Shown: positions 9,404 through 26,554 of the stretch, piece after piece
How the letters are laid out: every line of letters starts with the position of its first letter
Position numbering within the stretch: position 1 is the first letter of the stretch
Assembly: GCA_018238625.1 (NCBI GenBank)
Contig: JABCSY010000021.1
Coordinates: 1-46,819 of the forward strand
Origin: Promethearchaeota archaeon
Lineage (GTDB): Archaea > Asgardarchaeota > Lokiarchaeia > Sigyniarchaeales > SOKP01
Direction of reading: 5' to 3'
DNA: 46,819 bases
Notes under the pieces: generated by a model
Told to the model about the DNA's origin: nothing
What the model saw: the letters and a program-made list of their open reading frames with translations, nothing else
The model's database searches: none
Made by a program: the position numbers and the translations under genes

Positions 9404-10402
9404 ATGGAAGTTAAAACTAAACGCATCTTAATTGGATGTGTAACTGTAATAATATTCATATTAATGATTATTTATATTGATTTTCAAACAATTATCTCTA
9501 ATTTGCAAAGCATTTCTATCGTTGGTATCGTTTTATTTGCAGTCGTATATACTTTAGCATTTATTTTTCGAGCTTTAAAGTTGAAATTGGTTTTTAATGG
9601 TATTAATCTTCAACCCAACTATTTTGTAATTTATGGCGCGATAGGAACTGGATGGGCTATAAACGAAATCACACCTGCAAAGTTGGGAGATTTAGCAAAA
9701 ATGGAATATATTCACCAAAAAGAACCGAAAGTTTCGTTAAGTAAATGTGTGTGCGCAGTTTTAATAGATCGATTTATTGATTTAATAATTCTTTTTTCAA
9801 TTACTTGCTTTGCTTTGTTTTATATTTTTTTAAGTAATGTTTCCTATCCAACCGAATTGAACCTCCATTTTTTTATTATTGTTGGTGCTGGAATTCTTTT
9901 AGTTGGAGTTATAGGTTTAATCCTGTTGTTTTTTAAAACCGATTGGATTCTAAACATAATTGGTAAGATATCACAAAAAATTAAGAATCTGTTAGAAAGG
10001 TTTGTTATCAGGTTTGTTGAAGGATTAAATGATTTTCGAAAAGATAAAAGAAGAATATTATTAGTATTACTATACAATGTACCAACGTGGTTTTTTGAGT
10101 CGCTTACTTTAGTGATTATATTTTATTTAGCGGGATATCAAATAGATTTCGTTATAATTATAATAGCTCAAATTATAACTTTTTTTACAAAAACGATTCC
10201 GGTAACACCAGGAGGGTGGGGCGTATCTGAAATTATCGGTGCCTTATTTATCTCTTTATTTTACCAAATAATCCCATATAATGAGCTCTTATCACTATTT
10301 GTCTTAGACCACATTCTTCGAATGGTTTATGTTTTTATATATGGTGGAATTTCAACCATTGCGATTAATTTTAAGTTTAAAGATACTGAATTTAAAAGTT
10401 AA
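9404..10402 (+). CDS. Lysylphosphatidylglycerol-synthase-TM / flippase-like membrane protein (UPF0104-like)
   Basis: Multi-pass hydrophobic protein with NEITPAKLGD, DRFIDL and PVTPGGWGVSE motifs. Next to a GT2 gene. Confidence 0.8.
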   Translation: MEVKTKRILIGCVTVIIFILMIIYIDFQTIISNLQSISIVGIVLFAVVYTLAFIFRALKLKLVFNGINLQPNYFVIYGAIGTGWAINEITPAKLGDLAKMEYIHQKEPKVSLSKCVCAVLIDRFIDLIILFSITCFALFYIFLSNVSYPTELNLHFFIIVGAGILLVGVIGLILLFFKTDWILNIIGKISQKIKNLLERFVIRFVEGLNDFRKDKRRILLVLLYNVPTWFFESLTLVIIFYLAGYQIDFVIIIIAQIITFFTKTIPVTPGGWGVSEIIGALFISLFYQIIPYNELLSLFVLDHILRMVYVFIYGGISTIAINFKFKDTEFKS

Positions 10403-10438
10403 AATACTCTAAGTGAGTAAAAAAGGATTGAATCTTGT

Positions 10439-11152
10439 TTACAGATATCTTAGCCGTAATTTCAGTAGATTCAAAAAGATAAAAATTGGGTCATAAATCT
10501 TCATTTTAGATCCTTCTTCGTGTTTCCATTCAATAGGTAATTGATAAACCTTTATTCCATTTTTTCTTGCTTTGTAAAGTAATTCTACATCAAACTCCCA
10601 TCTATTAGCTTTAAGATCCTTGAAAATTTGAAGAGCGACATCGTGAGAAAATCCTTTGAATCCACATAACAAATCATTTATTTTAATTCGAAATAATACA
10701 TTAGAATATAAATTGAATATTTTACTTAACAACCTTCTACTTAGGGGTTGTGGATCTGTTATATTAGACAACGCGGAGATTCTTGACCCTACTACTATAT
10801 CGTAATTATATTTTTGGTAAATTCCGTGCAAATTTAATATTTCTTGTGGTTTAATTGAGCCGTCTGCGTCAATAAAAAGAATAAACTTACCTTTAGCTTT
10901 TAAAACACCCTGCAAAACAGCATGACCCTTTCCCATGTTATCGATATAACTAACCAATTTCGCTCGTTTATCGCCTTGGATTTTTTTTAAGATAATTTCC
11001 TTAGTTTTGTCTTTAGACCCATCGTTTACGACAATAATCTCATAACTCTCTAAATTTTTTCTTGCGAATTCTAGTAGGTTTCCCAAAAACTTAGGGATTC
11101 TTGTTGCTTCGTTATATGCCGGTACTATAATACTAAGTTCAATATCTTCCAT
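10439..11152 (-). CDS. GT2 polyprenol/dolichyl-phosphate glycosyltransferase (ALG5/DPM1-like)
   Basis: SIIVPAYNE, VNDGSKD, NMGKGHAV, FIDADGS (DxD), GSR, CGFKGF, WEFDVELL. Confidence 0.9.
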   Translation of the reverse strand: MEDIELSIIVPAYNEATRIPKFLGNLLEFARKNLESYEIIVVNDGSKDKTKEIILKKIQGDKRAKLVSYIDNMGKGHAVLQGVLKAKGKFILFIDADGSIKPQEILNLHGIYQKYNYDIVVGSRISALSNITDPQPLSRRLLSKIFNLYSNVLFRIKINDLLCGFKGFSHDVALQIFKDLKANRWEFDVELLYKARKNGIKVYQLPIEWKHEEGSKMKIYDPIFIFLNLLKLRLRYL

Positions 11153-11296
11153 TTCATCGTAATTTTAATTATGTAATAACTTTTCAATAATAAATTCTTA
11201 AAATTGTTAGAATATTTATTCTTAACTGTAAGAACATTTTAATTTAATTCATCTTATAAAATAATATCAAATTCTGTTAATCAATAAAAAATCAGA

Positions 11297-12391
11297 TTGA
11301 ATACTATGTTTAAAAAAGATCAAGATGGTTTATGGAAAATTAAAAACCATTACCGCTTAGGAATAATCCTTATCGCGTTAGGTATAGGAATTAGAATATT
11401 TATGTTAGTTTATTATTATACCGTTCATCTTGACCCAAGTATGTCTTGGGGCGATGTAATGATTAATTACCACACTACCGATTCAATGTTTACAGGGGAA
11501 TGGATTTGGGATATAACAGAATTAGAATATCCGCCTTTAACTTTGTATTTATTGGTGTTTTTCAAATTTATATCGTTTGGCGTTTTTGAAGTATTTGTCT
11601 TTTATGCGTTTTTTTTAGAATTACTTATTTCTCTATCTTTTTATTTTGTATTAAAAAAATTTAATCTTAAAAATAGTTTCTTTGTTCTTGGAGTATTTTT
11701 AGTAAATCCATTTGTGTTTTTAAATAACGTCTTTAGTTTAATTAACTGTGGATATCACATAACGGATAGCTTCTTTTATATCTTTTTAATCTTGTCTTTA
11801 TATTACTACCCAAAAGAGGATAAAGCATTATTCTACCTATTTTCGGGGTTAACTATGAGCGCTAAATGGTTTACATTGCCGGCTGCTGCTTATTTCTTTC
11901 TTAAGTTTTTGCTCGATAAGGATTGGAAGGAAATGAAAAAGCTCTTCGTGTTTATTGGAGTACCAATTATGTTGTTTTTAATTAGCCCAATTTTATATCT
12001 TCCAGATTATTTAAACCTTTATTTTGGGTGGCTATCTAGTACGGAAGTAGCCGCATTTTATAACCCTCCCCTACTCGTTAAGGTACTTCTATTTGGAGCT
12101 ATATTTTTCGTTTATTTTATATTCCGTGTAAAAAAAGCAGATCTTTTAGAAATCACTTTTTTTTCTATAATAGTTATGTTTTCACTATTGTTTTGGAGAC
12201 GAACCTATGTAAGATATCTTACGCCCCTAATTTTATATGGGCATCTAAAAACTAAAGATGCTATTTTAACTTTTGATTTTGATGTGAAAATTAGTCGGGT
12301 GCATTTTCAAATCGGTAATCACCTTTTAACTTATCTACTTTCCATTTTAGGATGTGTCGCATCTATAGCAATAATAATATTCATATTTTAA
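11297..12391 (+). CDS. Polytopic GT-C-type glycosyltransferase (GT87-like)
   Basis: About 10 hydrophobic segments, with a first loop containing GD...EYPPL as in GT87-like transferases. Confidence 0.6.
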   Translation: MNTMFKKDQDGLWKIKNHYRLGIILIALGIGIRIFMLVYYYTVHLDPSMSWGDVMINYHTTDSMFTGEWIWDITELEYPPLTLYLLVFFKFISFGVFEVFVFYAFFLELLISLSFYFVLKKFNLKNSFFVLGVFLVNPFVFLNNVFSLINCGYHITDSFFYIFLILSLYYYPKEDKALFYLFSGLTMSAKWFTLPAAAYFFLKFLLDKDWKEMKKLFVFIGVPIMLFLISPILYLPDYLNLYFGWLSSTEVAAFYNPPLLVKVLLFGAIFFVYFIFRVKKADLLEITFFSIIVMFSLLFWRRTYVRYLTPLILYGHLKTKDAILTFDFDVKISRVHFQIGNHLLTYLLSILGCVASIAIIIFIF

Positions 12392-12410
12392 TTTAATTGA
12401 AGGGTTAATA

Positions 12411-13238
12411 CTGAAAGCGGATAAAAATATAAAACATAGGGACAAAACCATTCGCTCTTATATTATATCAAGAAATTGGGATAAAAATCCAGAATTTCTT
12501 CTTGTTAGAGAAGTTGTTCAAAATTTAACAAAGAAAAAACCAAATCTGAATAATTTCAAATATGTCTATGATTACGAATGGGAGGTTGAAACTGGATTAT
12601 CTAATAAAGGCAAAGGAGATTTAATCTTCACGGATGGTAAGAACAATTTTCTAATTGTTGAGTGCAAGAATAAAAATACACAGGAAGTTAAAAAGCAAAC
12701 AATAGTTTATATGAAAAAGTTCGAAGAAATTCAAAAAGGTATCCAAATGGTAAGAGGGATGGCTGTTACCAAGGAAAGATGGGATCTTGTCTCCAACGAG
12801 TCTCCTTATTGGGATTTAGATATTAAAGAAAAGGACCGACCTTACTACGAATTGTTTGATGATCTTGACAATCCTGATGAGATTAAAAAAAGAAATAAAT
12901 TTCAAGAAATTTATAAAAACCTAGGTTTAATGCCAAATAATCCAATAAACGCACTTAAGGAATTAGAAGATAAGTGTTTCATTGAAATAAACTATAAAGA
13001 GCCCGAAGATATTATGCCGCCATTTTATTCCGAAGTTTGGATAAAATCTCTTAAATTTTTTCCCAAAGAAAACTATTATGGGGAAGGTCATGGGTTAAAT
13101 AAAAAAAAAGCTAAAGCGATAGCATATGTTGATATCTGCAACCAATTGTTTCTACCATATCATATGAAAGACCAACACATTCCAATAAAAGAGTTAAAGA
13201 ACTTCTCTTTAAAAGAAAAAAAAAGTATTAGTTCTTAG
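12411..13238 (+). CDS. Putative PD-(D/E)XK nuclease fused to a C-terminal dsRNA-binding-like domain; non-canonical start
   Basis: The frame of track ORF 12711 is open back to 12378. The extension encodes YEWEVETGLSNKGKGDLIFTDGKNNFLIVECKNKNTQEVKKQTIVY. The C-terminus has NPINALKEL...YGEGHGLNKKKAKAIA. CTG at 12411 is the candidate start; the exact start is uncertain. Confidence 0.7.
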   Translation: MKADKNIKHRDKTIRSYIISRNWDKNPEFLLVREVVQNLTKKKPNLNNFKYVYDYEWEVETGLSNKGKGDLIFTDGKNNFLIVECKNKNTQEVKKQTIVYMKKFEEIQKGIQMVRGMAVTKERWDLVSNESPYWDLDIKEKDRPYYELFDDLDNPDEIKKRNKFQEIYKNLGLMPNNPINALKELEDKCFIEINYKEPEDIMPPFYSEVWIKSLKFFPKENYYGEGHGLNKKKAKAIAYVDICNQLFLPYHMKDQHIPIKELKNFSLKEKKSISS

Positions 13239-13268
13239 TAAGTTAAAAAGAAATAGAAAAGTTTTAGA

Positions 13269-20872: not shown

Positions 20873-23800
20873 TTATTTTAATTTTTCGTATTCATTTGCT
20901 TTTTTGGTTAATCTTTTGACTTCTCTTGTCATATCGCTAGCGCCCAGTTTGAAGATTTCCGAAGCGATTTTAGAAGCATACTTATACTTCGTGCTGGCTT
21001 CAGCGTAATTCTTACTTTTAACAGCATCTTTTGCTTCTTTTTCTAAATCCTTCTTTTTCGTACTTAAATCTTCAATCTTAGTTTTTCGAATAATTTCTTC
21101 GATTTGAACGAATTCATTTGACAATTCCCAGTTAGAGGCCAACATAGCAGCGTTTTGATACAATTCAATTGTTTTAGGATAGTTTTTCTTTCCTTTCGCA
21201 ATTTTAGCCCGTTTGGTTAACTCCTTAACCCCTTTTTCAGCAGACTTCTTGTTATCAACTACAGTAGTTCCTATAGTAGACTTAATTGGGGCAGAGACAA
21301 TTTGATGTTGTTTAGCCAAGCTAGAAAGGTAAGCCTCTCTTTCTATTGGACCCAATTGGCCTAAATCGTTCACTAATTTTTGTCTTTCATCGTTAGTTAA
21401 CGTGGTTAATGAAGCGACTTTTTGACTAATAAGATTCAATTCCTGCTGAGAAATTGGTTGAGCTTCAATTGTAGAGATTTCTATTGGTATTAGAATTTTC
21501 TTATCCCTTAGTTCCTTAATTCCCATAAAAATTTCTGCGGTATCCTTATTCGATTTTTCAGATGCTTCTTTTAATAACGTTGCGATAAAGAAGAAATCTC
21601 GATCTGCTTCTTTACAACAGCTATGTGCGACCTTTAACACGTCTTTTGCGAAAGAGCTTTTTATCTCTTTAACGCTTGAGATATCGTACGATATTTGATG
21701 TGGAAGAATAATTGATGTATTCAAAATTTCATCTACAATTATACCCGCATTTCTAAAGTGGTTTAATTGACCTCTCCAATTTGGCAAAACTTCCTTGTAG
21801 GTTTTTTCATAAGAATCTATAAATTCTTTTAAATGACGACGAAGAATTAAAGATGCCTTTTTACCTAAAACCAAGGCAACTCTTATAAATTGACCGTCAG
21901 CTAGTAATAACATTTTATCGCCGTAAGAAATTTCGTTTAGTGATTCTTGAGTAGCCATTTCCTTACCAAATGAAGATACAGCCGTTAAAAACCCTCCTAT
22001 CAATTCTGGATCTATCTGTTCTGAGCCATAGGATTTAAAGAATATACACGTTCCAGTTCCTTTGTATAGTACTAGTATGTGCTCTAGATTAATAGCGTCG
22101 TCGAAAATAGTCTTAACTTCGGTTAAAATTCGTTGTTTTTCTCTCTTTTTGGGAACGACTACACCACGATAAACTGCTAAAGAACCACCCGCTAGAGCAA
22201 TAGCAGCCCCGATGATTATAATATAAGGGAGTAGCTCTTCAAAAGTTAAACCGGGTGTGAGTGGAATAACACTAATATCGGAGATATACAATGTGTCAGC
22301 TAAATGATTGTATTCAACTTGTAATTCTAGAGTTATATTCATCGTCCTAGCATCGCTTCTTATTGTTATATCGAACGATACTCCACCAGTACTATTAGTA
22401 CTTTTTGTTTGAATTTCAGTTGACGCAATTCCATTAAAATAAGGCGTCATGATAACGTTAGAGCCTTGTAGAATTAGCCATTCTGAACCGTTGTAAAATT
22501 CTGCTAAAAGTACGATTGAAAATACTTCTCCTGCGTTAACTTCAGTTGGTTGAAGTACAACCGTCAGACGAGTTTGATATTTTTCAATTACGGTGAGATT
22601 GAAAATGAAAGATGTATTTTCGTAATTTGTCTTAGAAACTGTGATATTAATTAAATAGCTTCCTGCAACTAAATTAATATTCGAAGTAGATATTGTCCCT
22701 ATGTGTCTATTGGTTATAAAATTTATATCGTAAAGAAGTGTCCCGTTCGATCCTGTACCAAGATTTATATAGGTTATATAATATGAATTAACGTCTCCTA
22801 ATACTGAATTGTTGCTGAATTCTAAATCAGTTATATTGAATTCGATATCAAGATCGCTTTCTTCGAAGATTGTAAAATTGTATCCTAATCCGGATGGTGT
22901 TAGTTCTCCTCCCGGATCCTCTAATGAAATCAAATTTATTTGAGTATAATTTCCTCTTAAGTAAAATTGAATGTAAGCCAAGCTCCAGTTGTAGTTCGGA
23001 GATTTAGAGATATTCAATTGTAATGTATATAAACCTGAGTTCTTTCCTACAGTGCTAATATTCAATTTATAATTTCCAGGTCCAGGTTGAATGAATAATT
23101 CAAATCCAGGTTGCCAAGTAGTACCGGCATAATAATCCTTAATTATGATATCACTATCAATTAAACCATCAATCGCGTCGATATTTGTGGTATCATTAAA
23201 GTAGAAATCTATAGATGCATTAATCCAAGTACTTCGAGCAAAATCAGCATTATTGTTCCATGATTGGATTTCAATACTTGTTTGAATTATCGTCACTAGG
23301 ATTGTTAAAGAGATTTCTTGTGATTGATTACCAAAAACTGAAATGCTAAAATTAAGTGTAAATGGATCAACTATAACCCCAACATTTGAAGAATTAAGAA
23401 AGAGCGTATAATTACCATCACCAACATCATTCCGTAGGTAGTATTGAAAACCAAAGAGAGGAGAGGTTGGTTGAAAAATATCATATTCAACTATAGGGTT
23501 TCCTGAAGTATCCGAATAATTAAATGTATAAGTCACATTGAGACCCTTCTCAATTTCTACTAAAGGAGGATTATTAAAGGGCGTAATTTGAGTTGTAATC
23601 TGGCGCTCAAAAGTAAGAGTCCTTGTTAAGTTAATATAATTTGTTTTATTTGCTCGAATAATTATATCTACATTACCATAATTTGTTCCAAAATCAGCAT
23701 CCCCAACATCTATAGTTATGTTATAAGTCCCATCTATATTATCTAATACATTATCCCATCGATAATTAGAGCCATCAATAGTATAGGTAATATCAGCTCC

Positions 23801-26554
23801 AGCGATCCCACTAGCAAGAGTGTGATCTTCATATCCTATCATAATATCAAATGTTTCGTCTTCTACATAAAATACAGAGCCAGTTGGGTCAAGAATAGTA
23901 AGAGTTGTATTGCCAACAACTATTTCTCCTAATATTTCCTCAGCAGTATAATAATGCGATTTCGTAATGTTAATTTTGATATTATATTTGCCATAAGGGT
24001 TAAATATTGGATCACTACAATCTACTGTGATATTATAATATCCCCCACCAAGGGGATCTATTATTACTGGAGTGTATTCTTGATATGAACTTGCAGATAT
24101 TTCTTTAACAAAAATTTTTGCTAGCCCTCCATTAATTCCCTCACTCCTACCAATATCTTCAAAGTATGCTGTAATATTAAATAGTTCATCAGAATTGTAG
24201 TATCCTATACTAGGATCAGGGAATTTTGTAGTGCTTAAACTCGTTTCTCCAGTAATATAAATAATAAACTCGGTTGATTGATTGTAATAATAAGATTTTT
24301 CCACATTAATGCTTAGATTAAAATAACCATACCCTTGGGATTGAAAAATATCATCATCACAATTTATTGTAATATTATAATTGCCATCCCCATAGTCATG
24401 ATTACTTATTGGAGTATATGGAGTTGAATTAACGTAAACATCCCTAATCGCACCAAGTATACCACTATCTTTAACGGTATCATTGTAAAACATAGAGACA
24501 TTAAAGGTTTCCATTGAATCAAAAGACACTTTTAGAATTGATCCATCTAATTCTGTTTCTCCCAAAATGATAATCTCTAATGTCTTAGTCTGATTATGAT
24601 AGTAAGTATTATTTGCTCTAATCGTTATTGTATTAGAACCATAATTAAATTCTGTGTTATTACAATCAAAAGTGATATTATATTGACTATTACCGATATA
24701 TTTTACGCTCGCGTTTACGGAGCTATAAGTTCCAGCGTTAATCTTATAGTAAATATCGCCATCAGAAATATCCAAAACTTGTCCTATATCGTCATAGGTG
24801 ATGGTAATATTAAAAATCTTACTTGAATTAAAGATAGTATTCTGCGACGGTTGATTAATGAGTAAACTTGTTTCTGCTAATATGGTTATGTTATCTCTAA
24901 AGAAACCCGCATCAGTACCGTTATTCCACTGAGTCAGTATTCGGAACTTTCCATATTTGGTTACCGTATCAGATATATCCCAATTACCAAAGTATATGTC
25001 ATCGCCTGAAACAAAAGAATTGTTAATAAGCGTATAATTCAATCGATCGTCTAAAGCTAACGGGTTATAAACGCTTAGATTAATACTTCCATCACTAATA
25101 GAGCTAGAAAAAGTTCCGTTAAAATGAACAAGATCGGTATAATTAAAAGTATCTGCTACTGATGTTGTACCAACATATTTTTTTATATCCGTAAGAAGAT
25201 TCGAAGATGTGGCGTTTAAAAACCAATAAGTACCATTTCCGGCATTAACCATTTGTATATCTTTATAATGATTGAAATTGTGTGTTTTTATATCACCTGT
25301 TTTATCGGTACCGCCATTCCACACTTCAATGTTCGTCCATCTGGAAGAAATAGTGAAATTTATCGTATAATTATTGAATCGCGAATCAAAATAGTTTAAT
25401 CCGCCAGATTTAGTTACATTCCAAAAAACATCTTGTCCGTTTCCTAAAACTTCAAAGCTAGAATCTGCTCTTAAATCCGTTTTAGTATAATTGATTTGAA
25501 CTTTTGTTATATTACAAGAAACATCCCACCAATCAGCTGATACAGTAAAATTTAATACATCAGATGTGCTTGAGTATGCTTCTTCTGAACTGTAATATCC
25601 TGATCCTTGGGAAATATCATAAAATAATGTAGTATTTAATTTAAGATTGATTTCAGAAGGTTTTGGAATATTATTAATAGGAGATAAATCAATAGATAGT
25701 CGGAAATCTACAGAAGGATCTCCAAGTAAAAAGTCATCTCTTAATACCCATCCCGAGCTATAATAATAAGCAGTACTCTCATCATCATTATCACCGTTAC
25801 TTTGATCAGCAACATAGTACCATCTAGTATCAGCTCCTACTCCTCCATCAAATAAACCAATGAACCAAGTATTATTTTCTGTAAAAGTATTGTTTAAGAG
25901 ATAGTGAACATGAAAAAGTGAATATGTACCTGTAGTAGTTGCTGGGACATTGAATGTTCCTAATGTGGATACATAGCCCAAATTTGTTCCATCGGGTTCA
26001 CTTCTGCTATTTCCAGTATCCCATGTTGAATTATATAGAACCATAGTTACTGTAGCTGGATTCCCAGCAACATTCCTAACATAAACAGAAATATTTTCTA
26101 AATAACCATTGCCTATAACTTCAAAAGAAGTTACATCTGGATTACTATTTGTAAAATCATCAAAATTAGTTATAGTATCATCTTCTACAACTAATGTATA
26201 GTTTGGGGCATTAATACTATCAACAGTCATGTTAATGAAGGAGGTGTTATAACCATTAAAATTAGGAAATGGTTCTAAAAAATTATTTTCACTATCTAAA
26301 TTCGTAAACTCAATAGTTGAAGTATTTAAATACGATTGATGTAATGTGATATTAACTTTATTTCCCATCCCTTTAGAAGAAGGAAGCGAATCAGAAGTTT
26401 TTGGAAAATTTATAAAATCGTCTTTATTCGCACCGTCTTTGTAAAAAGGAGGCTCGAAATTGAAATTTGCAAATATAGTTATAGATAAAAAACTAAATAG
26501 CAGAACTGAGCAAGTTATTATTTTCTTTTTTTTGTTTAAATTTTTCATAAACAT
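20873..26554 (-). CDS. Giant single-pass membrane protein: Ig-like ectodomain, TM, longin-like and helical cytoplasmic domains
   Basis: Basic and hydrophobic N-terminus, then ~1400 aa of beta-rich repeats with many NxS/T sequons, TM LLPYIIIIGAAIALAGGSLAVY, then HILVLYKGTGTCIF...DPELIGGFLTAVSSFGKE. Confidence 0.85.
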   Translation of the reverse strand: MFMKNLNKKKKIITCSVLLFSFLSITIFANFNFEPPFYKDGANKDDFINFPKTSDSLPSSKGMGNKVNITLHQSYLNTSTIEFTNLDSENNFLEPFPNFNGYNTSFINMTVDSINAPNYTLVVEDDTITNFDDFTNSNPDVTSFEVIGNGYLENISVYVRNVAGNPATVTMVLYNSTWDTGNSRSEPDGTNLGYVSTLGTFNVPATTTGTYSLFHVHYLLNNTFTENNTWFIGLFDGGVGADTRWYYVADQSNGDNDDESTAYYYSSGWVLRDDFLLGDPSVDFRLSIDLSPINNIPKPSEINLKLNTTLFYDISQGSGYYSSEEAYSSTSDVLNFTVSADWWDVSCNITKVQINYTKTDLRADSSFEVLGNGQDVFWNVTKSGGLNYFDSRFNNYTINFTISSRWTNIEVWNGGTDKTGDIKTHNFNHYKDIQMVNAGNGTYWFLNATSSNLLTDIKKYVGTTSVADTFNYTDLVHFNGTFSSSISDGSINLSVYNPLALDDRLNYTLINNSFVSGDDIYFGNWDISDTVTKYGKFRILTQWNNGTDAGFFRDNITILAETSLLINQPSQNTIFNSSKIFNITITYDDIGQVLDISDGDIYYKINAGTYSSVNASVKYIGNSQYNITFDCNNTEFNYGSNTITIRANNTYYHNQTKTLEIIILGETELDGSILKVSFDSMETFNVSMFYNDTVKDSGILGAIRDVYVNSTPYTPISNHDYGDGNYNITINCDDDIFQSQGYGYFNLSINVEKSYYYNQSTEFIIYITGETSLSTTKFPDPSIGYYNSDELFNITAYFEDIGRSEGINGGLAKIFVKEISASSYQEYTPVIIDPLGGGYYNITVDCSDPIFNPYGKYNIKINITKSHYYTAEEILGEIVVGNTTLTILDPTGSVFYVEDETFDIMIGYEDHTLASGIAGADITYTIDGSNYRWDNVLDNIDGTYNITIDVGDADFGTNYGNVDIIIRANKTNYINLTRTLTFERQITTQITPFNNPPLVEIEKGLNVTYTFNYSDTSGNPIVEYDIFQPTSPLFGFQYYLRNDVGDGNYTLFLNSSNVGVIVDPFTLNFSISVFGNQSQEISLTILVTIIQTSIEIQSWNNNADFARSTWINASIDFYFNDTTNIDAIDGLIDSDIIIKDYYAGTTWQPGFELFIQPGPGNYKLNISTVGKNSGLYTLQLNISKSPNYNWSLAYIQFYLRGNYTQINLISLEDPGGELTPSGLGYNFTIFEESDLDIEFNITDLEFSNNSVLGDVNSYYITYINLGTGSNGTLLYDINFITNRHIGTISTSNINLVAGSYLINITVSKTNYENTSFIFNLTVIEKYQTRLTVVLQPTEVNAGEVFSIVLLAEFYNGSEWLILQGSNVIMTPYFNGIASTEIQTKSTNSTGGVSFDITIRSDARTMNITLELQVEYNHLADTLYISDISVIPLTPGLTFEELLPYIIIIGAAIALAGGSLAVYRGVVVPKKREKQRILTEVKTIFDDAINLEHILVLYKGTGTCIFFKSYGSEQIDPELIGGFLTAVSSFGKEMATQESLNEISYGDKMLLLADGQFIRVALVLGKKASLILRRHLKEFIDSYEKTYKEVLPNWRGQLNHFRNAGIIVDEILNTSIILPHQISYDISSVKEIKSSFAKDVLKVAHSCCKEADRDFFFIATLLKEASEKSNKDTAEIFMGIKELRDKKILIPIEISTIEAQPISQQELNLISQKVASLTTLTNDERQKLVNDLGQLGPIEREAYLSSLAKQHQIVSAPIKSTIGTTVVDNKKSAEKGVKELTKRAKIAKGKKNYPKTIELYQNAAMLASNWELSNEFVQIEEIIRKTKIEDLSTKKKDLEKEAKDAVKSKNYAEASTKYKYASKIASEIFKLGASDMTREVKRLTKKANEYEKLK

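Follow-up and report, generated by a model that had tools for sequence, protein, structure and literature searches.

Background

To our knowledge, nucleases that are guided by a domain for the binding of double-stranded RNA (dsRBD) occur almost only as RNase III, Dicer, and Drosha. We describe here a gene that joins a dsRBD to a putative endonuclease domain of the PD-(D/E)XK type, located at positions 12411-13238 (forward strand) of contig JABCSY010000021.1 from a Promethearchaeota archaeon (assembly GCA_018238625.1; Lokiarchaeia; Sigyniarchaeales; SOKP01). The whole stretch that was analyzed, 46,819 nt of this contig, is referred to below as the window.

Two kinds of described systems lie closest to this gene. 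Cyanobacterial HEPN-RNase III-dsRBD 'two-headed RNases' and the HEPN-dsRBD protein CXorf38 were presented together, and the authors proposed that these proteins act on double-stranded RNA (dsRNA) in defense (PMC3710099). Among the Asgard archaea, an rnc gene encoding RNase III with a dsRBD was reported beside the Argonaute HrAgo1 (PMC11217426). No description of a PD-(D/E)XK-dsRBD fusion was found in full-text literature searches, the coverage of which does not extend to the supplementary tables of the Asgard defense papers, where the family could be listed as a candidate. The initial annotation of this DNA did not recognize the architecture from any characterized protein.

The reading that we favor, with a probability of roughly 0.55, is that the gene encodes a homodimeric nuclease aimed at A-form duplexes, with a dsRBD derived from Asgard RNase III and with a function that is probably related to conflict. 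As judged from sequence comparison and structural models, the layout resembles that of RNase III with the catalytic domain swapped for one of the restriction-enzyme type. The PD-(D/E)XK domains are predicted to pair as a symmetric homodimer through their first helices, and the dsRBD would dock this dimer onto an A-form duplex (dsRNA or an RNA-DNA hybrid). The two active sites would then cut the bound duplex. Such an activity would serve in conflict with viruses or other mobile elements and not in core RNA maturation.

Gene extent and conservation

Residue numbers below follow P0001, the 280-aa translation begun at 12396. The features of the encoded protein, with models from AlphaFold2 (AF2), are as follows.

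12411-13238, forward strand: full-length nuclease-dsRBD frame, 275 codons and a TAG stop, aligned end to end with homologs of 270-286 aa
12423-12536, forward strand: two N-terminal helices, residues 10-47 (AF2 helices 10-25 and 32-47), predicted homodimer interface
12561-12794, forward strand: PD-(D/E)XK core, residues 56-133, from invariant residues, AF2 topology, and Foldseek
12582-12584 (E63), 12618-12620 (D75), 12660-12662 (E89), 12666-12668 (K91), and 12696-12698 (Q101), forward strand: putative catalytic positions, invariant in the homologs
12711-12713, forward strand: internal ATG (Met106), the start chosen by open reading frame (ORF) finders, downstream of the catalytic motif and an ordinary internal Met in the homologs
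12795-12941, forward strand: conserved linker, residues 134-182, with a helix at 160-176 (predicted local distance difference test score, pLDDT, about 95); second half common to Asgard RNase III by hhalign
12942-13145, forward strand: dsRBD, residues 183-250, from Pfam dsrm, AF2, Foldseek, and hhalign
13146-13235, forward strand: conserved tail with FLPYHMKD..PI and a final helix; the FL[PE]Y portion is common to Asgard RNase III

The automatic ORF call covered 12711-13238 and yielded 175 aa. ORF lists begin at 12711 because no earlier in-frame ATG, GTG, or TTG is present. The same frame is open back to 12381, just after two stops, and the upstream stretch is conserved in homologs, in line with the observation in the initial annotation that the frame continues for about 110 codons. 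The chance of 110 stop-free codons is about 2e-4 at the base composition of the window (33% G+C), and a tblastn search of the window returned a single high-scoring segment pair free of stops. Both motifs quoted in that annotation, GKGDLIFTDGKNNFLIVECK and KQTIVY, were found in P0001.

A search of 5.8 billion proteins identified 34 at E ≤ 1e-3. Of these, 25 are near-full-length homologs, with coverage of 89% or more of the 280-residue translation and lengths ranging from 251 to 300 aa. The first Met of the full-length homologs, about 30 of which have 270-286 aa, aligns to the window codon at 12411. Invariant in the 34-row alignment are W62, E63, K73, G74, D75, L76, E89, K91, Q101, and G177. Identity to the window was greater in the upstream 100 codons than in the remainder for all 33 homologs compared (33/33), with 93% versus 77% in the closest one, P0002. 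This difference indicates that the extension is truly coding and that it is the half of the protein under greater constraint. The frame at 12411-13238 encodes a conserved two-domain protein, and the order proposed at the outset, PD-(D/E)XK followed by dsRBD, is supported by alignment, fold prediction, and fold search.

The catalytic domain and its predicted pairing

The AF2 model of the full protein, built from the 34-row alignment, had a mean pLDDT of 90.0 and a predicted template-modeling score (pTM) of 0.85. Its core consists of strands 56-60, 76-79, and 84-90, helix 95-112, and strands 118-124 and 129-133, giving a beta-beta-beta-alpha-beta-beta order, and the same elements were obtained when the N-terminal domain was modeled by itself from 72 sequences (pLDDT 87.7). 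Strand 2 opens with D75 and strand 3 carries E89-C-K91, which fits the requirement of the PD-(D/E)XK superfamily. In the 72-sequence alignment, which includes stand-alone relatives and is cited here in its own numbering, E84 was invariant while D70, K86, and Q96 were at least 90% conserved.

The leading matches of the N-terminal domain in a Foldseek search of the Protein Data Bank (PDB) were all PD-(D/E)XK enzymes. The best was NucS (2vld, E 1.4e-3), and comparison with EndoMS (5gke) gave a template-modeling (TM) score of 0.45 on the query and a root-mean-square deviation (rmsd) of 2.6 Å over 94 columns, so that the earlier guess of a NucS-type domain agrees with the best fold matches. Further matches comprised bunyavirus cap-snatching endonucleases, HincII, AdnAB, Cas4-like proteins, the R2 endonuclease, and MGME1. 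Since no fold-search E-value reached 1e-3, these are fold assignments and not family memberships.

Named families were also consulted. No curated PD-(D/E)XK model passed its threshold for P0001, the N-terminal part of which gave only sub-threshold Pfam matches, each of them to a PD-(D/E)XK family: PDDEXK_15 (E 0.019), DUF234 (E 0.052), HSDR_N_2 (E 0.057), and NucS_C (E 0.11). Of the 72 relatives, five matched PDDEXK_9 and two matched UPF0102 at E ≤ 0.01, and no named family fits. The top ESM Atlas feature for P0001 scored 0.81, below the 0.9 cut-off, and restriction-enzyme N-terminal families that appeared there are taken as leads only.

A HMMER search against 1.84 billion representatives returned 126 matches at E ≤ 1e-3, with E-values down to 1e-19. 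It was noted that most of these are proteins of 140-220 aa in which the alignment is confined to residues ~10-130, accompanied by a few fusions of greater length, among them a protein of 1044 aa that matches HATPase_c_3 and HSDR_N_2 weakly. The named hosts of the stand-alone relatives are cyanobacteria (Leptolyngbya, Nodosilinea), proteobacteria, and Promethearchaeota. The N-terminal helices of the fused protein bear the motif RD..[IL]R.Y...R.WD.NPEF, which is common to these relatives. Most stand-alone forms carry an Arg/Lys-rich insertion of 15-25 residues (of the kind GRTARxRRxxKR) after ExK, and the fused family is without it. The confinement of this insertion to the stand-alone forms looks as though the dsRBD had assumed nucleic-acid binding.

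Taken by its sequence and its model, the N-terminal part is a PD-(D/E)XK domain with intact catalytic residues and a putative metal-dependent endonuclease. Duplex-cutting PD-(D/E)XK enzymes and RNase III use dimers with two active sites. A two-copy model of the protein scored 0.63, compared with 0.00 for the best of three controls; the score mark was reached by 20 of 30 proteins with a solved homodimer structure and by 1 of 23 with a solved single-chain structure, a rough calibration since a custom alignment was used. The dimer runs agreed in at least 100% of contacts, and partner pLDDT was at least 87. The symmetric interface comprises residues 11-33 and 61-69 and includes the conserved N-terminal helices. 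The modeling supports a homodimer formed via these helices.

The RNA-binding module

A dsRBD had been placed at about 12939-13148 by the initial annotation, and the models returned a predicted alpha-beta-beta-beta-alpha element at 12942-13145 (helix 183-192, strands 196-201, 210-218, and 226-233, helix 236-250; block pLDDT 86-96). The Pfam dsrm (PF00035) match to residues 197-251 had an E-value of 9.5e-5 and scored 23.3 bits, the gathering cut-off being 23; in the genome scan the score was 24.8 bits. When the whole model was searched against the PDB with Foldseek, ranks 1-41 were all dsRBD-containing chains, including Loquacious dsRBD1 (E 2.1e-3, probability 1.00), Staufen, Aquifex RNase III, ADAR2, TRBP, PKR, and DCL3. 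The highest TM score on the target among these matches, 0.76, was found for Loquacious dsRBD3. Contact with RNA is made by dsRBDs through three regions, namely helix 1, a loop with the motif GPxH, and KKxAK at helix 2. Helix 1 (NPINALKEL) is conserved in the fused family, as is a basic KKKAK or KKEAK at the start of the second helix, but the loop is altered, as described below.

We found that this module leads to the RNase III proteins of Asgard archaea. Profile matches restricted to the C-terminal part (positions ~150-260) were ORFs of 250-293 aa and represent RNase III proteins. Pfam Ribonuclease_3 and dsrm were present in all three that were tested (3/3). Eight more ORFs were read and displayed an ERLEFLGD-type RNase III signature with a dsRBD, and in L013 just the C-terminal part and the dsRBD were seen. 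When the family was aligned by hhalign to 11 RNase III sequences of Asgard archaea, the probability was 98.9% and E 1.4e-17 over 130 columns, a region that takes in the helix preceding the dsRBD, then the dsRBD, and then the C.QI[FY]L[PE]Y tail. In a sequence profile search of the PDB with the family, the best dsRBD was that of Loquacious at E 0.77, the other matches being to nsP2 at chance level. A word-based search with the C-terminal 126 residues retrieved 10 close family proteins and no RNase III. On these comparisons, homology to the module of Loki-type Asgard RNase III extends over linker, dsRBD, and tail, and the distance between E 1.4e-17 and E 0.77 suggests that the module was taken from that enzyme or that the two have a recent ancestor in common.

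The genome that holds the window is 97.9% complete, and the fusion gene is its sole Pfam-level dsrm match. Two other ORFs with an RNase III domain, of 241 and 228 aa, were found there without a Pfam-level dsrm. These lie at L105 1435-2160 (+) and L106 1480-2166 (-), and the C-terminus of the former looks, by eye, like a very divergent dsRBD. Across the phylum, dsrm was detected in 78 of 400 genomes, chiefly in ORFs of RNase III size; within the window's genus, the other 41 genomes gave no match. For this phylum, the remark in the initial annotation that dsRBDs are uncommon in archaea calls for qualification.

The start codon of the window copy

The following features bear on how translation of the window copy might begin.

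12411-12413, forward strand: CTG where the homologs place their start codon (ATG at 15 fused-family loci, TTG at one)
12399-12404, forward strand: GAAGGG, a weak Shine-Dalgarno-like purine stretch read from the sequence, 6 nt 5' of the CTG, putatively functional

One further fused-family locus has a frameshift in an A-run right after the start position. The only other near-cognate codons in frame upstream of the CTG are ATA at 12408 and ATT at 12396. The stop codon of a co-directional upstream gene lies at 12389-12391, 19 nt 5' of the CTG. GGAGTGA or AGAGTGA is found at equal distance from the ATG in several homologs. Gene-bearing contigs from metagenome runs X1 and X2, which belong to two studies, showed 0 differences from the window, the CTG included. 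This identity indicates that the CTG is no assembly slip, but one of the runs may be the source of the assembly.

The choice of 12411 as the gene start was therefore sound as to position, given that the first Met of the homologs aligns there, whereas the codon itself is not a usual start. Because ATG has been replaced by CTG, full-length translation of the window copy is doubtful, and the same single change explains why the catalytic half was overlooked by gene callers in this genome. Weak near-cognate initiation at the CTG, or coupling to the upstream gene, is possible. The window copy may be either weakly translated or newly silenced.

The second of these states, a newly silenced gene or nascent pseudogene, is one that we consider possible while leaning against it; it concerns this copy and not the family. 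At most a 175-aa fragment lacking the catalytic motif would then be made from the ATG at 12711. The contrast between CTG here and ATG or TTG at the 16 loci speaks for silencing, as does the lack of a usual in-frame start elsewhere. Against it, the 275 codons are free of stops and frameshifts, with all invariant residues retained; the purine-rich stretch and the nearby end of the upstream gene would allow near-cognate or coupled initiation; and the same CTG allele recurs in the runs of two studies, with the reservation about the assembly source given above. Further points in favor of silencing come from the population data.

Distribution, polymorphism, and decay

We assessed the distribution of the family with a profile run against the 400 genomes of the phylum, 26 of which matched in any part. 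The whole gene is held by four genomes, being intact in G000 and G228 and interrupted by stops in G249 and G164. Two more hold fragments, seven have the N-terminal domain only, and the rest have the C-terminal part only. Within the genus, the other 41 genomes lack the gene, save for one broken copy. At syntenic loci of the genus, which were located through the LarA-like neighbor, it was found in 0 of 29, and in 12 of these 29 the membrane-protein gene abuts the LarA-like gene (14-250 nt between alignments). In the two closest genomes, the LarA-like gene adjoins the U32 peptidase gene.

Presence and absence also vary within a population, the unit involved being the whole gene.

12393-13242, no strand assigned: 850-bp segment containing the whole gene, present or absent among contigs of the same metagenome runs (X1-X3)

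In the empty allele, 12392 is joined to 13243 with 34 other letters between them. This was seen in one contig each of X1, X2, and X3, which represent three studies, where the right side of the joint spans just 30-35 letters and a likeness threshold of 90 applied. The same three runs also contain gene-bearing contigs, with positions 12408-12627 uncovered in X3. Contig depth was greater for the gene-free than for the gene-bearing allele in each run (12.3 vs 8.7, 10 vs 6.1, and 8.2 vs 2.2-4.5). In a comparison by eye, about 12 of 18 of the replacing letters resemble the gene leader ending in ATG, followed by the last ~15 letters of the gene. By that match the empty allele would be a deletion derivative of an ancestor with an ATG start; AT-rich sequence of this kind aligns easily.

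Decay of the gene was encountered at 5 of the 17 other fused-family loci. These disruptions consist of a frameshift in L063, two TAG codons in L064, one TGA in L079, one TAA in L081, and an extra A near the start in L088. In two independent broken homologs the stop falls on one and the same conserved Trp codon (W28, in the predicted dimer helix), as TAG in L064 (~1792) and TGA in L079 (~8070). A third stop also replaces a Trp (L064, near 2491), and this may reflect chance at a mutable codon or repeated selection for early knock-out. Recoding of stops in the homologs was considered and rejected, since TAG, TGA, and TAA all occur. Of the 26 differences listed for a variant with 94% identity (X9), 9 fall at synonymous sites and 17 at non-synonymous ones. 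The disrupted loci, the greater depth of the gene-free allele in three runs, and the ratio in this variant all add to the case that the window copy is newly silenced. These results demonstrate that the gene is accessory, strain-variable, and often inactivated.

Such a distribution bears on two further explanations. The first is a housekeeping enzyme that replaces or assists RNase III in the maturation of rRNA or tRNA. The origin of its dsRBD module in RNase III and its place as the sole Pfam-level dsrm match in the window's genome would suit this role. We nevertheless disfavor it as highly improbable: apart from one broken copy the gene is missing from the other genomes of the genus, a portion of the same population lacks it, two genes with an RNase III domain are already present in the genome, and the window copy is without a normal start. 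The RNA-maturation role that the initial annotation had offered beside defense is accordingly unlikely, because the distribution is sporadic and strain-variable.

The second is a selfish, free-standing endonuclease gene of the homing type, copied into gene-free alleles that it cuts and conferring no host benefit. Homing endonucleases of the PD-(D/E)XK type are known. The presence/absence polymorphism is the size of the gene and is sharply bordered between two convergent genes, which speaks for such an element, as do the sporadic distribution, the different context at each locus, and the frequent inactivation. However, neither an intron nor an intein was found, nor were there flanking direct or terminal inverted repeats beyond what AT-rich sequence would produce, and no transposon hallmark was seen. 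A dsRBD is an unlikely module for sequence-specific recognition of DNA, and no target gene is common to the loci. We regard this explanation as distinctly improbable.

Genomic context

The window copy lies between a membrane-protein gene and a LarA-like gene, with a GT2 glycosyltransferase, an LPG-synthase-like protein, a U32 peptidase, a dCMP deaminase, and Alba encoded nearby. As a separate observation, the two closest genomes (L033, L034) lack the block of LPG-synthase-like, GT2, and 364-aa membrane-protein genes (9404-12391) at this position. The membrane protein is just ~40% identical in other species of the genus, and the block looks like a variable surface-glycosylation island. Elsewhere in the window, the ORF list contains a frame of 1893 aa at 20873-26554 (-).

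Neighbors of a defense type were encountered at several other loci of the fused family. In L062 (G228), a complete type I restriction-modification operon and a YgjP-like gene lie directly upstream of the homolog and co-directional with it. PLD-like nucleases adjoin the homologs in L063 and L083. Also beside homologs are a Cas4-like/RNase_H_2 protein (L077), a PD-(D/E)XK gene and a reverse-transcriptase and leucine-rich-repeat protein (L082), a weak HEPN match (L079), a 1633-aa STAND-TPR protein (L087), an OLD-like AAA_21-TOPRIM protein (L088), and a DprA/SLOG protein (L085). The reverse-transcriptase protein in L082 (2876-5119, -) has 748 aa and is encoded just downstream of the homolog.

Among the stand-alone relatives, a few PIN, transposase, and BrxL genes were found as neighbors, without a consistent defense signal. 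In G140, a viperin gene (pVip, E 7.2e-78) has its stop overlapped by the gene for a stand-alone nuclease. This cluster (contig C157; L008 462-3468 and L031 1186-1995) encodes an RNase III of 269 aa, the viperin of 328 aa, the nuclease of 165 aa, and an AAA-type ATPase of more than 476 aa. The overlap is 8 nt, the RNase III gene lies 0.5 kb upstream, and the arrangement is a possible operon with an antiviral gene. When pVip and the adjacent ATPase were compared by tblastn with all fetched loci, they were found at that one locus only; the viperin linkage is thus a single case.

The context also bears on whether RNA is the substrate or only the signal. It could be that the dsRBD acts as a sensor alone, such that binding of viral dsRNA activates a non-specific DNase, which would degrade DNA of the host or the virus in the style of abortive infection, and RNA is not cut. 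Most PD-(D/E)XK enzymes cut DNA, and NucS/EndoMS, HincII, and AdnAB among the fold matches are of this kind. Neighbors of the abortive-infection type (PLD, OLD-like, STAND) and the repeated inactivation, which fits a costly or toxic gene, point the same way. On the other side, AF2 packs both domains into one confident body (pTM 0.85) with no hint of an autoinhibited state, cap-snatching endonucleases that cut RNA are also among the top fold matches, and the layout copies that of RNase III, where the cleaved substrate is put in place by the dsRBD. A sensor-activated DNase is in our view unlikely.

Assessment and significance

We return to the favored reading of a dimeric nuclease directed to A-form duplexes by an RNase III-derived module. 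A part in conflict appears the most likely role for it because the gene is accessory, strain-variable, often decaying, and often situated among defense-type genes.

Several findings weigh against this reading. The fold-search E-values were modest, with none at or below 1e-3 for either the whole model or the N-terminal domain, and the tendency of PD-(D/E)XK enzymes to cut DNA means that RNA cleavage is not the default expectation. The dsrm score was barely above its cut-off, and just 10 of the 34 family members reached E ≤ 0.01. In every fused member the GPxH loop is replaced by PPF or P-F and lacks the His; the RNase III proteins of Asgard archaea have GPDH at this position. In the window copy the start codon is CTG, and this copy sits among housekeeping and glycosylation genes, outside any defense island. 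The defense-type neighbors of the fused family form a raw listing with no background rate for these genomes, and the neighbors of the stand-alone relatives are chiefly housekeeping or mixed (aconitase, pyruvate kinase, transport). P0001 matched 0 families of PADLOC-DB 2.0 at E ≤ 0.001, and six unannotated neighbors were likewise without a PADLOC match.

A more far-reaching form of the favored reading is that the gene is a single-gene dsRNA sensor and effector of Asgard archaea, that is, a homodimeric nuclease of restriction fold that is guided by its dsRBD, cuts viral dsRNA or RNA-DNA hybrids, and is kept as a costly presence/absence polymorphism. We hold this form to be speculative and rather doubtful. 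If true, it would represent a route to dsRNA-triggered immunity that does not involve RNase III, in the closest archaeal relatives of eukaryotes.

The significance of the gene lies first in its architecture, in which the targeting module of RNase III, linker and tail included, would have been moved onto an unrelated catalytic domain in the archaeal lineage closest to eukaryotes. Should dsRNA or RNA-DNA hybrids be cut, it would constitute a second, independent way to build a nuclease for RNA-containing duplexes, a candidate RNA-sensing defense gene for Asgard archaea, and possibly a compact new reagent. The pattern of gain, loss, and inactivation within populations helps to tell accessory conflict genes from core RNA-processing genes.

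Relation to described enzymes

In its layout the fused protein resembles the class-1 RNase III of Loki-type Asgard archaea. These enzymes have a similar size (~265-290 aa) and the same order of catalytic domain, helical linker, dsRBD, and FL[PE]Y tail, and the C-terminal ~130 residues are homologous by the hhalign comparison given above (98.9%, E 1.4e-17). RNase III forms a homodimer, as is predicted for the fused protein. They differ in that the catalytic domain of RNase III is all-helical whereas that of the fused protein is predicted to have the unrelated PD-(D/E)XK fold, and in that the GPDH loop of the Asgard RNase III dsRBD has been lost from the fused one. No match to Ribonuclease_3 or Ribonucleas_3_3 was found in P0001, which is not a member of the RNase III family and shares its C-terminal module only. 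ORFs with an RNase III-type dsRBD are widespread in the phylum (dsrm in 78 of 400 genomes), whereas the fusion gene is rare.

The resemblance to NucS/EndoMS (2vld, 5gke) is restricted to the N-terminal domain, for which these are the best structural match and with which they share the D...ExK...Q arrangement. The likeness is one of fold only: NucS_C scored 12.9 bits against a cut-off of 24, and the NucS N-terminal domain is lacking. NucS, moreover, acts on mismatched DNA and is without a dsRBD. The stand-alone PD-(D/E)XK proteins of 140-220 aa are by contrast true homologs of residues ~10-130, with the same RD..LR.Y...R.WD.NPEF helices and YDYEWEV...GKGDL...VE.K core, and are distinguished by the absence of the linker and the dsRBD.

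The cap-snatching endonucleases of bunyaviruses and orthomyxoviruses (e.g. 7ewz) share the PD-(D/E)XK fold, occupying fold-search ranks 3-10 with probabilities of 0.75-0.97, and they offer a precedent for the cleavage of RNA by this fold. They superpose at an rmsd of ~11 Å, act on single-stranded capped RNA as part of a viral polymerase, and have no dsRBD. The HEPN-dsRBD proteins (PMC3710099) share with the fused protein the joining of a second kind of nuclease domain to a dsRBD; their nuclease is HEPN, and the cyanobacterial forms keep the RNase III domain that the fused protein would have exchanged for a PD-(D/E)XK domain.

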